A DNA stretch of 64,000 nt. It comes from an uncultured Acidobacteriota bacterium. GTDB lineage: Bacteria > Acidobacteriota > Vicinamibacteria > Vicinamibacterales > CAVPJW01. The stretch lies in contig CAWGYQ010000009.1 in assembly GCA_963826865.1 (NCBI GenBank), positions 14,570 through 78,569 on the forward strand, read 5' to 3'. This document shows positions 9,711-63,994 of this stretch, piece by piece. How positions within the stretch are numbered: the stretch's first letter is position 1; each line of letters begins with the position of its first letter. The notes beneath the pieces were generated by a model. It had not been told where the DNA came from. It saw only the letters and a program-made list of their open reading frames with translations, and did not search any database. The translations under genes were made by a program, and so were the position numbers.

Positions 9711-10625
9711 ATGCGGATCGCCATGACCGGCGGCACGGGCTTCCTCGGCACACACCTCTCCCACGCGCTGATCGCCGGCGGCCACGACGTGGTCGTCCTC
9801 ACGCGCCGCATCACGGCGACGAAGCGCCCCGGCCTCACGTACCGAACGTGGCAACCCGATCGCGGCATCGCTCAGCTCCTGCCGGTACTCACCGGCGCTG
9901 ACGCCATCGTCAACCTCGCGGGCGAGTCGATCGCGTCCGGTCGCTGGACGAGGTCCAGAAAACAGAGCCTGCGGGACAGCCGCGTGCAGACGACACGCCT
10001 GCTCGTCGAAGCCGCGCGCGCGCTGCCATCGCCGCCACGTGTCTGGCTCAACGGCTCAGCGATCGGCTACTACGGCTCGCGCGGGGACGAGCGGCTGACC
10101 GAGGATTCGCGGCCGGGCCACGATTTTCTCTCGAGTCTGGCCATGGAATGGGAAGCGGCCGCATCCGCGGCCGGCGACTTTGCCAGGGTGGTGCTGATCA
10201 GGACCGGCATCGTGCTCGATGCCCGTGAGGGCGCCCTGCCGCGGATGCTGCTGCCCTTCCGACTGTTCGTGGGTGGCCCGCTCGGGTCGGGCGAGCAGTA
10301 CATGTCATGGATTCATCGCGACGATTGGATCGCGCTCGCCGTTCTTGCGCTCGAACGTGGCGTGTCCGGTCCGCTCAATGCCACCAGTCCAGAGCCGGTC
10401 ACGAATGCGGAGTTCAGCCGCACGCTGGCCCGTGTCCTCCATCGACCCAGCCTGCTGCCGGCGCCGGCGTTCGCGCTTCGCCTGCTGCTCGGCGAAACAG
10501 CCGATGCCCTGCTGCTCGCCAGTCAACGCGTGCTGCCCGCACGCGCCGAACAGCTCGGATTCGAGTTTGGATTTCGCGAGCTGGAACTGGCGTTGCGATC
10601 AGTCCTGGGGAGAACCAGCGGGTAG
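9711..10625 (+). CDS. TIGR01777/YfcH-like NAD-dependent epimerase/dehydratase family protein (with DUF1731-type C-terminus)
   Basis: MRIAMTGGTGFLGTHLSHALIAGGHDVVVLTRR Rossmann motif. The long ORF 8763..10625 is trimmed because its 5' part is antisense to tetR/hlyD. An alternative ATG lies at 9702. Confidence 0.8.
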   Translation: MRIAMTGGTGFLGTHLSHALIAGGHDVVVLTRRITATKRPGLTYRTWQPDRGIAQLLPVLTGADAIVNLAGESIASGRWTRSRKQSLRDSRVQTTRLLVEAARALPSPPRVWLNGSAIGYYGSRGDERLTEDSRPGHDFLSSLAMEWEAAASAAGDFARVVLIRTGIVLDAREGALPRMLLPFRLFVGGPLGSGEQYMSWIHRDDWIALAVLALERGVSGPLNATSPEPVTNAEFSRTLARVLHRPSLLPAPAFALRLLLGETADALLLASQRVLPARAEQLGFEFGFRELELALRSVLGRTSG

Positions 10626-10634
10626 CGGGCGCGA

Positions 10635-11453
10635 CTAGGCCGTGCGCGAAGGTGTCCCGATGAGATACCGCGGGCCCGTCGGGGCGGGCACGCCGCCTTC
10701 GGGCTCGATCGTCAGCGCCATGGCGAGCGGCTGTGGCAGATCGGGCGGCGTCTGGAAGGTCACCGAGACGTTGCCCGACGGATCGGGTTGCACCAGCCCG
10801 GCGCTGATCGGCGCCTGCGCCGTCACCACCCACAGCTGATACGTGCGGCCGGGCGGCAGAGCAGGAAGGTTCGAGGCCGTGAACACCAAACCTCGGGATC
10901 GGCTCCAGTAGGCACGTCCGCTGGCCGTCGGGGCGGCGGGTTCGCCGACGAGATCGACGCGCGCCAGATCGGGTGACATCAGGATGTCCAGGTGAGCCTG
11001 GGCGATCCTCGTATCGCGGCGCGCGTCCGCGACTTGAGCCTCGAGAGCCTCGGCGCGCGCGGTGACGTCTCTGAGGCGGCCTTCGAGGTCGCCGATGCGC
11101 TGCTGCCGATCCCACGTCGCGTAGCCGAGCGCCGCGGCCAGCAGCAATCCGGCGGCTGCGGCCAGCCAGCCGGCTCGCGACCCGGAGTTCGTTTGGGGAC
11201 GGCTCGCCGGTTCTTCGGGTTGGTCGCCGACGACAGCTCTCAAGACCCGCTTGCGAAGTTCGGAGGGTGGCGCGACGGCAGGAACGGCCTGCGCCAGACC
11301 TTGTACGACTGGCGCGAAAGACCCCACTTCCTGGCGGCACTCGGCGCACACACGCAGGTGAGCGTCGAACAACGCACGGTCTTCGAGGCTGAGCGCGCCC
11401 AGCACATAGAGGCCGCTCAGCTCGTGAAGTGCTTCGTGCTCGGGCACGCTCAT
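10635..11453 (-). CDS. Anti-sigma factor (zf-HC2 N-terminus, single TM, RskA-like C-terminal domain)
   Basis: HLRVCAECRQEV (H-x3-C-x2-C), central TM WLAAAAGLLLAAALGYA. C-terminal motifs GRAYWS...YQLWVV...FAVTLEP-like (AMALTIEPEGG). 4-nt overlap with the sigma gene. Confidence 0.75.
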   Translation of the reverse strand: MSVPEHEALHELSGLYVLGALSLEDRALFDAHLRVCAECRQEVGSFAPVVQGLAQAVPAVAPPSELRKRVLRAVVGDQPEEPASRPQTNSGSRAGWLAAAAGLLLAAALGYATWDRQQRIGDLEGRLRDVTARAEALEAQVADARRDTRIAQAHLDILMSPDLARVDLVGEPAAPTASGRAYWSRSRGLVFTASNLPALPPGRTYQLWVVTAQAPISAGLVQPDPSGNVSVTFQTPPDLPQPLAMALTIEPEGGVPAPTGPRYLIGTPSRTA

Positions 11454-12189: not shown

Positions 12190-12882
12190 CTACGAGGCGC
12201 TTCGACTGTATCTCTGCAGCGTGGCGCGCCACCGGGACACCGGTTCGGGAGCGCCACCCTGATGATCGAGCACGATGTGGCGTGTGCGATATCTGACACC
12301 GTAGAAGCGCTCGTTCGCGTCCTGGTCCTGGCGTATCGCGGCCCCTTCCAGACTCACACCTGCAAACAATCCCCGCGACCTCGAGTAGCTCAGCATCTCC
12401 GCCCTCAGTTGAATATCCGTCGAGGCTTCGGCTTCCCGTCCGACCGGCCCTGCGGCCACCGAGGCGTCGGCTCCGATCTTGAACTGGTTGCTGAGCAGGT
12501 TCTCGAGCCCGCGGCGATTCTGAATGATCAGCACGAAGTCGGTCGCCTGTCCACCCACCTGCAAGCCGATGCTGCCGCCGGTGATCGTGAGGAACGCAGG
12601 AGCCGACCAGTTGTTGCTCGGCCGATCGCGCACGCTGACGATGCCCCGACCGAAGTGCGCGGCCAGGATGAACCCGCCTTTGAGCGTACCGGGAAAGATC
12701 GCGATGGCCTCGGCCTTGGCCAGAACGCTCGCAGGAATGCCTTTGTCGGGCGCGGCCATGATTTCGGCGAACACGGTGCTCGCTTCGTCGATACGGTCGG
12801 CTTCGTCGGACTGCGCCAGAAGCAGTCCGGATTGAACCATCGAGCATATCAACACCGCCGCCGACGTCTTCAGATGTCGCAT
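12190..12882 (-). CDS. Secreted SYLF/Ysc84 (DUF500) lipid-binding-domain protein
   Basis: Signal peptide MRHLKTSAAVLICSMVQSGLLLAQS. Repetitive glycine-rich beta motifs GGSIGLQVGG, GADASVAAGPVGR, SRSRGLFAGVSLEGA typical of the SYLF domain. Confidence 0.7.
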   Translation of the reverse strand: MRHLKTSAAVLICSMVQSGLLLAQSDEADRIDEASTVFAEIMAAPDKGIPASVLAKAEAIAIFPGTLKGGFILAAHFGRGIVSVRDRPSNNWSAPAFLTITGGSIGLQVGGQATDFVLIIQNRRGLENLLSNQFKIGADASVAAGPVGREAEASTDIQLRAEMLSYSRSRGLFAGVSLEGAAIRQDQDANERFYGVRYRTRHIVLDHQGGAPEPVSRWRATLQRYSRSAS

Positions 12883-12972
12883 GAGTCGCTCATCTCTCCT
12901 CGCTCGGTCGGTCGCGCTTCGGGACTCGACCGGTGGCGCGACGCGCGAGTTCAGGTCGACGCGGTCACACCC

Positions 12973-13956
12973 TCAGTAGGCCATGAGCTGTCTGAGGGCA
13001 TTGGTGATGGTGTCGGCGTTCGGCAGATTGTGCTGCTCGAGAGCCGCGGCGAATGGACAGTGCGTGTCGGGATAGGTCACACGCAGAATCGGCGCATCGA
13101 GCGCATCGAACCGCTCCTCAGAAATCGCAGCCGACAGTTCGGCGCCAAAGCCGAGCGTTCGAACGTCCTCGTGAACGATCAGCACCCGGCTGGTCTTCTC
13201 GACCGACGCGAACACCGCGCTCTTGTCCCAGGGCATGAGCGAGCGCAGATCGAGCAGCTCGACCTCGACCCCCTCTTTCGACAACCGCTCGCAGGCTTCG
13301 AGCGACGGCTGGACCATCGCTCCGTAGGTCAGCACCGTGGCCTGGCGTCCTTCGCGGCGCACCGCCGCCACTCCAATCGGAACGATTTCGTCACCTTCAG
13401 GAACAGGTCCCTTGGCGCGACGGTACAGATACTTGTGCTCGAAGTAGACCACCGGGTTGTCGTCTCGAATCGCCGCCTTGAGCAGGCCCTTGGCGTCCCA
13501 CGGTGTCGACGGCGCCACGACCTTGAGTCCCGGGCGGTGGACGAACCAGGCTTCGGGATTCTGCGAATGATAGAGACCGCCACCCACATTGCCGCCAGAC
13601 GGCGCGCGAATCACGAGGGGCACCGACGCCCGGCCACCGTATCGGTACCTCAGGGTCGCCGCCTGGTTCACGATCTGATCGAAGCCGCAGCTGATGAAAT
13701 CCGCGAATTGCATCTCCGCGACCGGACGATAGCCGCGGAGCGATGCCCCGATGCTCACGCCGACAATGGCCGACTCTGAGATCGGCGTGTCGAGACACCT
13801 CAGCTCGCCGAACTCGTCGAACAGACCCTGCGTGACGCCGAACGCGCCGCCGTAAGCGCCCACGTCCTCGCCGAGCACCAGAACCTTGGCGTCGCGCCGC
13901 ATCTCCTCGATGAGCGCTTCACGAATCGCTTCCAGATAGGTGATCTCGCGAGCCAT
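12973..13956 (-). CDS. 2-oxoacid (pyruvate/branched-chain) dehydrogenase E1 component, beta subunit
   Basis: MAREITYLEAIREALIEEMRRDAKVLVLGEDVGAYGGAFGVTQGL..., 327 aa, directly downstream of the alpha subunit. Confidence 0.9.
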   Translation of the reverse strand: MAREITYLEAIREALIEEMRRDAKVLVLGEDVGAYGGAFGVTQGLFDEFGELRCLDTPISESAIVGVSIGASLRGYRPVAEMQFADFISCGFDQIVNQAATLRYRYGGRASVPLVIRAPSGGNVGGGLYHSQNPEAWFVHRPGLKVVAPSTPWDAKGLLKAAIRDDNPVVYFEHKYLYRRAKGPVPEGDEIVPIGVAAVRREGRQATVLTYGAMVQPSLEACERLSKEGVEVELLDLRSLMPWDKSAVFASVEKTSRVLIVHEDVRTLGFGAELSAAISEERFDALDAPILRVTYPDTHCPFAAALEQHNLPNADTITNALRQLMAY

Positions 13957-60565: not shown

Positions 60566-61570
60566 CTACTCCGCGCTCTTGGGATCGTCGTGTCGCCTGT
60601 GCCTCGCAACCACGCACAGCAGCTCGAAGAGGAGGTTCGCGGCCAGCAGTGAGGTGATGTGTCCCGGACCGTCGAACACCGGCGCCACCTCGACGACGTC
60701 GAAGCCGACGAGGTCGATGCCGGCCAGGCCCCGCAGGAGCCGCTGCGCTTCGTGCGACGTCAAGCCGCCGATTTCGGGCGTGCCCGTGCCGGGCGCGAAG
60801 GCCGGATCCACGGCATCGATGTCGAACGTCACGTAACACCGGCCTGTCGCGACCCGGCGCACGGCGTCGATGGTAGCTTCCACGCCGCGCTTGACCTGAT
60901 CGATGTCCACAACCGTGATGCCGTGCTCGCGGTGAAAGTCGAAGTCGTCCTCGCCGTACATCGGCCCCCGGATGCCAACCTGGATGAACCGTTTCGGATC
61001 CACCAACCCTTCTTCGATCGCCCGACGGAACGGCGTGCCGTGAAAGTATTTGGTGCCGAAGTACTCGTTCCACGTGTCGATGTGCGAATCGAACTGCACG
61101 AGGCCGACGGGTCCATGCGCCCGGGCCAGCGCTCGAAGCACGGGCAGCGAAATGCTGTGGTCCCCGCCAATGACTGCCGGTAGCGCGCCGGCTTCGATGA
61201 CGGAGGCGACGTGCCGCTCGATCACCTCGTAGCACTGCTCGATGGCAACAGGAGGGGCGTCGATATCACCCGCGTCCACGATGTTCAGGCGCTCGAACGG
61301 CGCAGTCTTCTGGAAATAGCTGTAGGGCCGGATGAGCGATGACTGGGCGCGGATCTCCCGCGGACCCAGCCGGGCGCCAGGACGGTAAGACGTGCCGCCG
61401 TCGAAGGGCACTCCGAGAATGGCCACGTCCACACCACGAAGGTCGGTGACGTGCGGCAGACGCATGAAGGTGGCAGGCTGAGCGAACCGCGGGGACTTGA
61501 ACGACTCGCGGGGTGTGAACGTCATCTGGTTCCAGTTTACTGGAACCCTTTTGTATCTTTGCTCCATCAT
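60566..61570 (-). CDS. speB: Agmatinase / ureohydrolase (arginase family)
   Basis: ATFMRLPH, GVPFDGGTSYRPGAR.GP, GGDHSISLP, FDSHIDTW, TFDIDAVDPAFAPGTGTPEIGGLT. The start may instead be the ATG at 61525, because the 61570 start leaves only 11 nt to the divergent permease gene. Confidence 0.8.
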   Translation of the reverse strand: MMEQRYKRVPVNWNQMTFTPRESFKSPRFAQPATFMRLPHVTDLRGVDVAILGVPFDGGTSYRPGARLGPREIRAQSSLIRPYSYFQKTAPFERLNIVDAGDIDAPPVAIEQCYEVIERHVASVIEAGALPAVIGGDHSISLPVLRALARAHGPVGLVQFDSHIDTWNEYFGTKYFHGTPFRRAIEEGLVDPKRFIQVGIRGPMYGEDDFDFHREHGITVVDIDQVKRGVEATIDAVRRVATGRCYVTFDIDAVDPAFAPGTGTPEIGGLTSHEAQRLLRGLAGIDLVGFDVVEVAPVFDGPGHITSLLAANLLFELLCVVARHRRHDDPKSAE

Positions 61571-61581
61571 AGGGCCCGCTC

Positions 61582-62979
61582 ATGGCGGCACCCGGCATCA
61601 GGCTTCACCGATCGCTCAGCATCGTCGAGTTCTTCACCTTTGGCTTCGGCTCCATGGTGGGCGTCGGCTGGGTCGTGGTGATGGACGATTGGCTCGGGCG
61701 AGGCGGGCCGGCCGGCGCGGCGCTCGGGTTCCTGATCGGCGGACTGCTCTTCCTGCCGATCGGGCGCACCTACGGGCGTCTGATCGCACGCATCCAGGAC
61801 GCCGGCGGCGAGATCGCCTACACCGAAGGGATCTTCCCCCCGTTCCTCAGCTTCGCCACCGGCTGGACGATGATTCTGGCCTACGCCATCGTCTGTCCGT
61901 GGGAAGCCGTCGCAATCGGCAATCTCCTGGGCCGTGCGTTTCCAGCGTTGAACGCATACCCGCTCTACAGCGTGGCTGGCAGCCCCATCTATCTGCCCCG
62001 ACTCGCGGCCGGACTGTTGATGACGCTCGTCATCGCCGGTGTGAATTACAGAGGCATTCGCCTGAGCGGCATCTTTCAGAACCTGACCACTTTTGGGCTG
62101 CTCGCGGTGTTCGTGTTGTTCACGACCCTTGGATTCGCGCGTGGCGAGGCGGCCAACCTGCCACCGCTCTTTGCCCGTCCCGGCGTCGTGGGGGCATGGC
62201 TCTCGATCCTTCTGGTCATGCAAATCGTTCCCTACTTCATGACCGGGTTCGAGTCGGTCGGCAAGGGATCGGAGGAAGCTCGACCTGGGTTCGACGCGCG
62301 AGACTTCGGACGGGCCATCGACATGGCCGTCGTCGCCGGGTTCGTCTTCTACGTCCTGGTCATCGCCGTCGTCTCATACGTGTATCCGTGGCCGCAACTC
62401 GTGGCCGGCCGGCTGGGATCGGAGATCGCCTTCGAGCGCGCGTTCGGCTCACGTGCGATGGCGCAGGCCATTCTCTTCGGCGCGTTCCTGTCGCTCTTCA
62501 AGGTCTTCAACGGCAACTTCGTCGCCGCGACGAGGCTCATGTACGGCATTGGGCGGCGTGGTCTCGTTCACGGCTCGCTCTCGTACATTCATCCGACGCG
62601 TGGCACACCGGCGACGGCCATTCTGCTGCTGGCGGGACTGACGGCCGCCGCGGCCTTTCTCGGGGATGCGGCGCTCATCCCGATTACCGAAGTCGGATCC
62701 CTGGCGGTCGGCGTGGGATGGATGTCGGCCTGCCTGGCCTATCTGGGGCGCACGGGACGGCACGCGAACAGCGCGGGCAGGCCCGCCGCCATCGCCGGCG
62801 CCCTCGTCAGCGGGGCGATCATCACGATGAAGGTGCTGCCGTTCGTACCGGGCAGCTTCGGGCCGTACGAGTGGACCGCGTTCCTGTTCTGGTGCGCGAT
62901 CGGCGTCGCCTTCTGGCTGGCCCGCGGCCAACTCAAGGAGACGGCGGACGCTCCGCTTCCTGAAGCGCCTCTGCGATGA
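61582..62979 (+). CDS. APC-superfamily amino acid/polyamine permease
   Basis: 465 aa, ~12 TM. FFTFGFGSMVGVGWVV...GGPAGAALGFLIGGLLFLP...GGEIAYT. Confidence 0.85.
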   Translation: MAAPGIRLHRSLSIVEFFTFGFGSMVGVGWVVVMDDWLGRGGPAGAALGFLIGGLLFLPIGRTYGRLIARIQDAGGEIAYTEGIFPPFLSFATGWTMILAYAIVCPWEAVAIGNLLGRAFPALNAYPLYSVAGSPIYLPRLAAGLLMTLVIAGVNYRGIRLSGIFQNLTTFGLLAVFVLFTTLGFARGEAANLPPLFARPGVVGAWLSILLVMQIVPYFMTGFESVGKGSEEARPGFDARDFGRAIDMAVVAGFVFYVLVIAVVSYVYPWPQLVAGRLGSEIAFERAFGSRAMAQAILFGAFLSLFKVFNGNFVAATRLMYGIGRRGLVHGSLSYIHPTRGTPATAILLLAGLTAAAAFLGDAALIPITEVGSLAVGVGWMSACLAYLGRTGRHANSAGRPAAIAGALVSGAIITMKVLPFVPGSFGPYEWTAFLFWCAIGVAFWLARGQLKETADAPLPEAPLR

Positions 62980-63589
62980 ACGCGTCCTCGGGGAGCGATC
63001 CGAGAATTTCGATGCGGTCGTCAACGATCGTCTTCGGCACACCGGTAATCCGATGCCGGCGCACGAGATCGGGAAATTCCGTGGCTTCGATGGCCGTGGC
63101 TCGAATCTTCGGGTTCTCGACGGCCATCCGGTAGGCAAGGCCCACGGCCCTGGGACAGTGCGGTCAAGTCGGCGTGACGTAGACGAGAATCTCGAGCGGA
63201 TTCGACACGGCGGCGACCCGCGCCCGGTTCGCCTCGGAGAGGCCCGAGTTACCGCTCGAGGCCAGCTGCACCGCATCGACCAGCGACATGAACTCGTAGC
63301 CAGACGGCGCGCCCAGATACGTCATTCTCTGGCCGCCCTTCCCGACGACGACGATGGCTGGGGCCCGCTCCACGCCGTACTCGGCTGCGGCGTCTTTCTC
63401 GAGCACGAGGTTATGTTCCTCGATGGTGATTTTCTCGGAAAGCGAGGCCAGCTCGTCGAGGATCTGTCTTGCCGTGCCGCAGGTCTCGCACTCAAAGGTC
63501 TGCGTGAAGAACACGAGCCGGACCGGATCGCTCAACTCGGCCAGTTGGCCGGCGAGCGTCTGACGATCGGCCTCGGAGAGCAGGGCCAT
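62933..63589 (-). CDS. Two-unit thioredoxin-fold protein-disulfide oxidoreductase (glutaredoxin-like/PDO-type) with in-frame TGA at 63164-63166 (candidate selenocysteine, U-P-H-C)
   Basis: ORFs 63164..63589 and 62933..63145 are in the same frame, separated only by TGA plus PHCPRA. The N-terminal unit has CETC. Read-through gives ...LVYVTPT-[TGA]-PHCPRAVGLAYRMAVENP...TGVPKTIV..., placing TGA at the first Cys of the second CPxC motif. Confidence 0.65.
63136..63152 (-). promoter_or_regulatory. Candidate bacterial SECIS-like stem-loop
   Basis: mRNA CAGGGCC-GUG-GGCCUUG (7 bp including one G-U; loop GUG) begins 11 nt 3' of the in-frame UGA. A second 9-bp stem GAUGGCCGU/ACGGCCAUC spans 63089-63128. 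Confidence 0.4.
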
Positions 63590-63595
63590 CGAGCT

Positions 63596-63994
63596 CTACT
63601 TGAAGAGATCGTCGAAGGCCTGCCGGGCGCTCGTCGTGCCGGGCGACCCGGTTTCGCGCTCGATTGTCACGCGCGGCTCGAAGAACCCGCAGTCATTCTG
63701 AACATCCTTGACGGCTATCCGTGCCGGAATGAGCTCCGTGCACTCGAAGTGACTGCTCGTGTCGAAGTGTGTGCACTGAAGACAGCTGTGCAGGTCGGTC
63801 CCGCATTTCGAACATCGTGAATCCACGGCGATCTCGACAGTGCCGGGCTGCCCGCATCGGCTGCACCGGACGACGCGCTTGAAGCCGGGCACGTTCGGCG
63901 CGCGCATCTCGGGCGGCTGCGGATCGCGCTTGGGCGCCCGCTCCGTTCGAGGCTCGTCCTGATACCCGCGCTGCCGGTACTTGCGATCGCTCAT
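63596..63994 (-). CDS. Cys-rich zinc-ribbon hypothetical protein
   Basis: 132 aa. Basic disordered N-terminus (MSDRKYRQRGYQDEPRTERAPKRD), then CSRC...CSKC...CLQC plus two further Cys. Lies 6 nt upstream of the oxidoreductase gene on the same strand. Confidence 0.5.
   Translation of the reverse strand: MSDRKYRQRGYQDEPRTERAPKRDPQPPEMRAPNVPGFKRVVRCSRCGQPGTVEIAVDSRCSKCGTDLHSCLQCTHFDTSSHFECTELIPARIAVKDVQNDCGFFEPRVTIERETGSPGTTSARQAFDDLFK

Follow-up and report, generated by a model that had tools for sequence, protein, structure and literature searches.

Does the in-frame TGA codon in a thioredoxin-fold gene near the end of this stretch terminate the protein, or does it encode selenocysteine (Sec)? 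The stretch, called the window here, is the whole 64,000 nucleotides of contig CAWGYQ010000009.1 that were analysed, from an uncultured Acidobacteriota bacterium, and the gene occupies 63589..62933 on its minus strand. An earlier reading of the bare sequence (the original prediction) proposed a Sec-containing oxidoreductase related to protein disulfide oxidoreductase (PDO) or glutaredoxin. Our analysis supports this proposal. Judged from sequence comparison, the UGA at 63166..63164 is very probably decoded as Sec, with a probability of roughly 0.9. The evidence seen in the analysis comprises the reading frame, the protein family, the placement of the TGA in the column of the catalytic Cys, at which homologues divide into Sec and Cys forms, the deep conservation of the TGA, and a rule-fitting hairpin that is selected in the Sec forms. 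The parts of the gene are as follows.

63589..62933, minus strand: predicted selenoprotein gene, complete, with ATG at 63589..63587 and the true stop, TGA, at 62935..62933.
63164..63166, minus strand: in-frame UGA, read as Sec at residue 142, the first position of U-P-H-C, from alignment to the catalytic Cys column.
63155..63166, minus strand: predicted UPHC redox motif, Sec142-Pro-His-Cys145, in the C-terminal thioredoxin-fold unit, from the sequence and from alignments to homologues and PDO structures.
63479..63490, minus strand: CETC motif, Cys34..Cys37, in the N-terminal thioredoxin-fold unit, from the sequence.

Two open reading frames (ORFs) share one frame on the minus strand, 63164..63589 (141 aa) and 62933..63145 (70 aa, GTG start), and their sole interruption is the TGA at 63166..63164, followed by CCG CAC TGT CCC AGG GCC. 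This arrangement is as the original prediction described it. Beyond the TGA, the frame is open for 76 codons up to the TGA at 62935..62933. Reading through gives a product of 218 residues, ...LEILVYVTPT-[TGA]-PHCPRAVGLAYRMAVENPKIRATAIEATEFPDLVRRHRITGVPKTIV..., of which a longer listing after the UGA is PHCPRAVGLAYRMAVENPKIRATAIEATEFPDLVRRHRITGVPKTIVDDRIEILGSLPEDAF. The GC content at codon positions 1, 2 and 3 is 0.66, 0.44 and 0.84 before the TGA and 0.71, 0.49 and 0.72 after it, and this similarity indicates that the coding signature persists past the TGA. Inspection of the read-through protein found no obvious signal peptide. TGA is the stop codon of 19 of the 32 long coding-like ORFs in the window, the PDO gene included. 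A reassignment of the codon was ruled out, because TGA terminates most genes in the window.

The read-through protein, with the TGA replaced by Cys for profile searches, reached 238.2 bits on the NCBIfam family TIGR02187 (current short name 'PDO_seleno_TRX'), above its curated cutoff of 185. The match runs through residues 6-209 and takes in positions 2-207 of the 209 in the profile. Pfam placed a Thioredoxin domain at residues 25-103 and a Thioredoxin_3 domain at residues 133-209. The Pyrococcus PDO structures 1J08 and 1A8L aligned end to end (E ~1e-33), whereas the PDOs of Aquifex and Aeropyrum and the AhpF N-terminal domain aligned more weakly. The Pfam matches and the end-to-end PDO alignment indicate two tandem thioredoxin-fold units in one chain. 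In these alignments the TGA column corresponds to the first Cys of CPYC in 1J08 and 1A8L, and to a first Cys of TPTCPHCP or TPTCPxCP that hardly varies among 23 full-length homologues. Both the homologues and the PDO structures thus bear out that a complete second thioredoxin-fold unit is present, with the stop where the first Cys of CPHC is expected. The CETC position of the first unit is only partly kept in the family, since an N-terminal CxxC was found in about 40% of the listed Sec forms. By homology, the gene at 63589..62933 is one 218-residue, predicted cytoplasmic PDO of the PDO/AhpF-N-terminal-domain-like family TIGR02187. The PDO/glutaredoxin-like assignment of the original prediction is therefore best expressed as membership of TIGR02187, with homology to the Pyrococcus PDO structures. 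Two related families were tried and rejected. AhpF itself (TIGR03140, a protein of about 520 aa) scored 70.6 bits against a cutoff of 502.9, and the chain ends at residue 218 with no reductase module. Classical glutaredoxin (TIGR02181) scored 24.7 bits against a cutoff of 90, and the match to PF00462 covers only the first 25 positions of that profile.

The TGA is kept in close and distant relatives. Two Logan assemblies of different sequencing runs have an identical 141-aa ORF with a 70-aa ORF 18 nt later, and contigs of metagenome-assembled genomes (MAGs) from two other samples (L002 and L149) have TGA at the same site. L002 forms one contig with L001, ERZ25039555 of 'uncultured Acidobacteriota bacterium MFD06229.bin.2.236', with 97% nucleotide identity to the window over the aligned gene. 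L149 (ERZ25039469) is near-identical to the window in the 161 nt around the TGA. The original prediction had named a Cys codon in close relatives as a sign against Sec; these relatives all have TGA, not TGC or TGT. The TGA and an intact downstream frame are also kept in distant genomes of Vicinamibacterales (L003, L004 and L027) and of 'Acidobacteria' (L005), whose proteins are 53-59% identical to that of the window. TGC stands at this column in the sister genomes L006 (Vicinamibacteria) and L016 (Acidobacteriota). When the column was scored over all aligned orthologues, the divergent ones divided into TGA and Cys forms exactly at the TGA: TGC or TGT in L006-L026 and L150-L155 (Cys forms), and TGA in L002-L005, L027, L149 and at least 119 metagenome contigs (Sec forms).

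The metagenome contigs were found by scanning for the pattern ACNCCNACNTGACCNCAYTGYCC (T-P-T-TGA-P-H-C-P), which matched at least 120 contigs. In-frame PDO homologues were found in 119 of the 120 contigs listed, each with about 70-84 conserved codons past the TGA, and their proteins are 31-92% identical to that of the window (median 42%). With such continuation in more than 120 homologues, the orthologues do not end at the TGA as natural one-domain proteins. One subgroup of the listed Sec forms has UPHCPPAVLLA (L032, L036, L041, L054, L066, L075, L076 and others) and resembles the Cys forms of the Thermoleophilia MAGs L017 and L024-L026 (CPHCPPAVLMA). In view of this likeness, Sec-form PDOs may be present in more than one phylum.

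A hairpin lies directly downstream of the UGA, where a bacterial selenocysteine insertion sequence (bSECIS) would be expected, and a longer stem follows it.

63152..63136, minus strand: SECIS-type hairpin CAGGGCC-GUG-GGCCUUG, 17 nt, from fold energy, bSECIS rules and enrichment in Sec forms.
63163..63153, minus strand: spacer of 11 nt between the UGA and the hairpin.
63152..63146, minus strand: 5' arm of the hairpin.
63145..63143, minus strand: loop of the hairpin.
63142..63136, minus strand: 3' arm of the hairpin, GGCCUUG.
63128..63089, minus strand: second stem of 9 bp, in the minimum free energy (MFE) fold, not a conserved part of the element.

The 17-nt hairpin 11 nt past the UGA, on which the original prediction relied, is a perfect 7-bp stem with -9.4 kcal/mol alone. 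The MFE fold of its local 37-nt context (-10.1 kcal/mol) contains it. According to the summary of the bSECIS model of Zhang & Gladyshev (2005) in PMC13188914, the apical loop has 3-9 nt and the upper stem 4-16 bp, one of the first two loop bases is G, as a rule with G or U after it, the distance from the UGA to the loop is 16-37 nt, and the MFE is at most -7.5 kcal/mol. The hairpin agrees with each of these rules. It has a 3-nt loop, GUG, on a 7-bp stem; the loop opens with G and then U; the 11-nt spacer and the 7-nt arm place the loop 18 nt from the UGA; and its energy of -9.4 kcal/mol is below the threshold of -7.5. Rfam offered no counterpart: a scan of the whole window at gathering thresholds returned nothing, an E-value scan of 62800-63700 returned only meaningless sub-threshold matches, and no family matched the hairpin at 63152..63136.

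Stems are common in coding DNA of 66% GC, so that the hairpin of the window alone proves little. The decisive comparison was made across the family. In an ungapped alignment of the 119 distinct listed Sec-form sequences, numbered from the U of the UGA, the loop base G22 is invariant and U23 is conserved in at least 90%; they correspond to the G and U that open the loop of the window hairpin. Tested sequence by sequence, perfect stems of at least 5, 6 and 7 bp were found in 90%, 77% and 33% of the Sec forms, compared with 41%, 24% and 5% of their synonymous recodings and 52%, 19% and 5% of 21 Cys forms. With the recodings as reference, the MFE z of nt +7..+36 was -1.05 in the Sec forms and -0.17 in the Cys forms, and two further regions of the Sec-form genes, used as controls, gave -0.36 and -0.18. 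Seven Cys forms share the CPHCPRAV peptide; two of the seven have a stem of at least 6 bp and none has one of at least 7 bp (3, 3, 4, 6, 4, 6 and 3 bp). The stem starts 11 or 12 nt past the UGA in 87 of 115 listed Sec forms, and the 7-bp stem of the window ranks in the upper third of the family, whose members differ in the register of the stem and in the size of the loop (3-8 nt). The pair A13:U27 of the window is replaced by C13:G27 in L003 and L004 through two synonymous changes (AGG to CGG and CUU to CUG), a compensatory change, and G14:U26 is replaced by A14:U26 in L002. On these sequence statistics, the hairpin is under family-wide selection at synonymous sites, and this holds for the Sec forms only.

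The second stem fared differently. The 9-bp stem at 63089-63128 that the original prediction placed after the hairpin does exist in the MFE fold, and its membership of the conserved element was rejected. Against synonymous recoding, the z of this region was -0.46 in the window and averaged 0.05 in the family, which indicates no structural selection.

At codon 9 past the UGA or Cys codon, the protein sequence seems to be under constraint from the hairpin. This codon (63139-63141 in the window, Gly) is part of the 3' arm of the hairpin, and Sec and Cys forms encode different residues there. Thr (ACG) predominates in close Cys forms, with 16 of 23 in the alignment, as in PRAVTLA. The Sec forms have Ser, Arg, Leu, Val or Gly, and Thr occurs in just 1 of about 125 (L135).

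Several observations weigh against decoding of the UGA as Sec. The scan pattern fixes TPT-TGA-PHCP, so that conservation of the flanks arises by construction and the ratio of Sec to Cys forms cannot be derived from it. The MFE fold of 87 nt picks an alternative, weaker hairpin, GUGGGC-CUU-GCCUAC (-7.7 kcal/mol). The 87 nt past the UGA gave z = -0.25 against dinucleotide shuffles, which is not significant, and the 30 nt of the window itself gave z = -0.27 against synonymous recoding. Pairing at fixed columns reached 63-65% in two registers, a modest excess over shuffles, with the register shifting by 1 nt between subgroups, and an RNAalifold consensus of the codon-anchored alignment gave no pairs. 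This failure of a fixed-column consensus is explained by the 1-nt shift of the stem, for example CCGGGC/GCCUGG versus GCGAGC/GCUCGC, and because of it per-sequence stem tests replaced the codon-anchored consensus. On the covariation that the original prediction looked to, the tests diverge: the per-sequence tests are clearly positive and one compensatory pair was seen, whereas fixed-column pairing is weak and RNAalifold gave no pairs.

Also on this side, selA, selB, selD and a gene for tRNA-Sec were not seen in the 64-kb window or in 1.07 Mb of related loci, a result that is uninformative for the rest of the genome. No tRNA genes at all were found in the window or in 40 related loci. A tblastn search of the 1.07 Mb with approximate sequences of E. 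coli SelA, SelB and SelD matched only genes for translation initiation factor IF2. The four 'SelB' matches, in the Chloroflexota loci L009, L019, L020 and L023 (~700-1700), which have Cys-form PDOs, were rejected as IF2; one of these ORFs, of 629 aa in L019, was examined and shows the characteristic features of that factor. A screen of the window for in-frame TGAs with frames open on both sides and coding-like GC at third positions gave no convincing candidate for a second selenoprotein. The family itself is classed as 'predicted with high confidence' in the reviews, which describe its selenium content as not experimentally verified. Acidobacteria (Acidobacteriota) are documented as Sec users at the phylum level in the literature, including a 2006 survey, and a literature search for selenocysteine in Vicinamibacter found nothing usable.

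Three other explanations of the TGA have to be weighed. It could have arisen through an error in sequencing or assembly, or through a recent mutation, TGC or TGT to TGA, that inactivated the gene; the locus would then be an ordinary Cys-PDO gene or a pseudogene. The source resembles a long-read metagenome assembly, and its relatives have fragmented genes; both points speak for this explanation. However, the defects in the relatives are indels, not substitutions. Close relatives have the same TGA in five independent assemblies, and so do more than 120 divergent homologues, in which the downstream frame is intact. Conservation of the 3' part at 31-92% identity would be unexpected for a pseudogene. 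The original prediction did not take a simple TGC to TGA error as its default, and the recurrence of the TGA in independent assemblies and divergent homologues leaves this explanation with a negligible probability. It is also very improbable that the TGA is a true stop between two genes, one for a 141-aa one-domain thioredoxin-fold protein and the other for a 70-aa protein starting at GTG 63145. Public gene calls do give 141 aa and 70 aa, a GTG lies 6 codons past the TGA, and TGA is the commonest stop in the window. Nevertheless, a protein of 70 aa would be missing both the redox motif and the initial strand of its fold. The codons between the TGA and the GTG encode P-H-C-P-R-A, the rest of the CPHCPRA active-site segment of Cys homologues, and the supposed 'GTG' start codon encodes the conserved Val of A-V. 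In the solved PDOs one chain covers both halves, and selection for a hairpin at this site is limited to the TGA forms.

The explanation closest to Sec decoding is read-through of the UGA without Sec, either by near-cognate suppression (Trp, Cys or Arg) helped by the hairpin or by Cys carried on tRNA-Sec, which would yield a selenium-free full-length protein. Downstream structures can stimulate read-through in general, and no Sec machinery was seen in the window or the 1.07 Mb of related loci; both points count for this explanation. On the other hand, the family is listed among the UxxC selenoproteins and the stop coincides exactly with its catalytic Cys column, the geometry and G/U loop of the hairpin are those of SelB-binding bSECIS elements, and Trp or Arg in place of the nucleophile would abolish the redox site. 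We consider it unlikely, with a small share of the total probability.

Decoding of the UGA as Sec is therefore the reading that we carry forward. The following account of Sec insertion, SelB dependence, redox partner and physiological substrate is inferred from the established bacterial Sec pathway. As the ribosome nears the UGA, the mRNA 12-28 nt downstream would fold into the 7-bp hairpin with its GUG loop. SelB with Sec-tRNA(Sec) would bind the G/U loop and the upper stem while the UGA is in the A site, and would deliver Sec there, outcompeting release factor 2. Translation would then proceed through P-H-C-P... to the stop at 62935..62933. The product would have the U-P-H-C site in its second thioredoxin fold and CETC in its first, and would cycle between selenolate/thiol and selenenylsulfide. 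Homology to PDO and to the N-terminal domain of AhpF suggests that it would reduce or isomerise disulfides in the manner of a thioredoxin. If archaeal PDO and this AhpF domain are taken as analogues, a flavoprotein of the thioredoxin-reductase type would probably recharge it.

The genes around the PDO gene in the window are the following.

63596..63994, minus strand: gene for a 132-aa Cys-rich hypothetical protein with three CxxC motifs and further Cys; its stop lies 6 nt before the ATG of the PDO gene.
61582..62979, plus strand: amino-acid permease gene, convergent; its 3' end overlaps the 3' end of the PDO gene by 47 nt (62933-62979).
60566..61570: arginase-family gene, beyond the permease gene.

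The 132-aa protein has 3379 homologues, all unnamed, and neither Pfam nor NCBIfam has a family for it. In 18 of the 84 listed Sec-form loci with enough flank, its ORF immediately precedes the PDO gene in the same orientation, and most of these 18 belong to the loci with the PDOs most similar to that of the window among the matches listed. Because its stop lies 6 nt before the ATG of the PDO gene, the two genes are probably co-transcribed, and the Cys-rich protein may be a functional partner of the PDO. The convergent arrangement of the permease and PDO genes recurs in L001, L149 and the Logan contigs. The related long-read MAGs show frameshift-type breaks in several of these genes, namely the permease gene in L001 (10611-12009), the PDO gene in L016 (10001-10638), and the arginase gene (12469-13427) and the N-terminal part of the PDO gene (10482-10832) in L149, with the TGA constant throughout. 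In the window, both the permease gene and the arginase gene are unbroken. Just upstream of the gene pair, beyond window coordinate 64000, the close relatives L001 (1-9419) and L149 (1-9378) have a cluster on the opposite strand that encodes NrfD, a large 4Fe-4S ferredoxin, a multihaem cytochrome c, SCO1/SenC and COX2. From our own reading of the Pfam matches, we take the NrfD, 4Fe-4S ferredoxin and multihaem cytochrome c part of this cluster to resemble alternative complex III.

Gene callers split the PDO gene in every public record examined, into a 141-aa ORF (116 aa in L149) and a 70-aa 'Thioredoxin_3' ORF, which are labelled 'hypothetical'. The split calls are located at L001 10001-10657, at L149 10482-11063 and in the Logan contigs. 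A protein homology search returned Cys forms only, together with one truncated match (P0012). The splitting of the gene calls accounts for the absence of the full-length Sec protein from protein collections. Protein databases would then under-represent the PDO selenoprotein, and selenium use by abundant soil Acidobacteriota would be under-counted.

The window gene leaves knowledge of Sec decoding and of the PDO family unchanged. What is modestly new is the abundance of such genes in soil and sediment metagenomes and in Vicinamibacterales, their mis-annotation as two ORFs, and the conserved upstream partner gene. A bolder idea would be that Sec-PDO, instead of being confined to a few thermophiles, is a major selenoprotein of soil and sediment bacteria that is systematically overlooked in annotation, especially Acidobacteriota of the Vicinamibacterales type, and that in the clade of the window it forms a two-gene module with the 132-aa Cys-rich protein. 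We regard this as speculative and, taken as a whole, rather doubtful. The first part draws on the contigs, at least 120, that matched an intentionally narrow pattern and on the split calls in every record examined, the second part only on the conserved adjacency in 18 of the 84 listed loci. If it is true, the PDO could for example be a dedicated reductase of the 132-aa protein, or the pair could act as a metal or redox relay. In addition, the 119 aligned Sec-form sequences with their hairpins provide a test set for bacterial SECIS predictors on high-GC genomes.

Comparison with known systems places the window gene among them at several levels. The minimal SECIS of E. coli fdhF has 17 nt with an 11-nt spacer, equal to the window hairpin, although a literature search on these two values found nothing usable, and it has a bulged U that the window hairpin lacks. 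In sequence the two elements are unrelated. The PDOs of Pyrococcus furiosus and P. horikoshii (1A8L, 1J08) and those of Aquifex and Aeropyrum (2AYT, 2YWM, 2HLS) are homologous over the full length (E 1e-33 to 1e-22) and share with the window protein the two thioredoxin folds, the N-terminal CxxC and the C-terminal TPTCPxCP site. They have Cys (CPYC) where the window gene has UGA (UPHC), they come from hyperthermophiles, and they carry insertions of 5 and 4 residues, both of which are absent from the window protein. The N-terminal domain of AhpF (1ZYN, 1HYU, 4O5Q) is a homologous double thioredoxin fold with a redox CxxC in the second unit, and this homology suggests electron transfer from a flavoprotein like thioredoxin reductase. 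AhpF has a fused FAD/NAD(P)H reductase module, whereas the window protein has none.

The closest likeness is to the PDO_seleno_TRX family, represented by ABB15282.1 of Carboxydothermus hydrogenoformans. Reviews from 2022 and 2026 credit the PDO selenoprotein family to Kryukov & Gladyshev (2004). PMC13188914 and PMC9312934 assign the UxxC motif to the TIGR02187-type selenoprotein family. The 2006 survey lists a PDO selenoprotein in C. hydrogenoformans and in Symbiobacterium thermophilum. The window gene shares with this family the hidden Markov model (HMM), the architecture of two thioredoxin folds, UxxC with the predicted Sec first in the C-terminal redox site, and a SECIS-type hairpin directly 3' of the UGA. 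The known hosts are thermophilic Firmicutes and Actinobacteria and the window host is a soil acidobacterium of the Vicinamibacterales, with the likeness drawn at the level of the family HMM. Every testable feature of membership was found in the window gene, and it therefore belongs to the known PDO selenoprotein family, as a further member of a family predicted since 2004 rather than a discovery.

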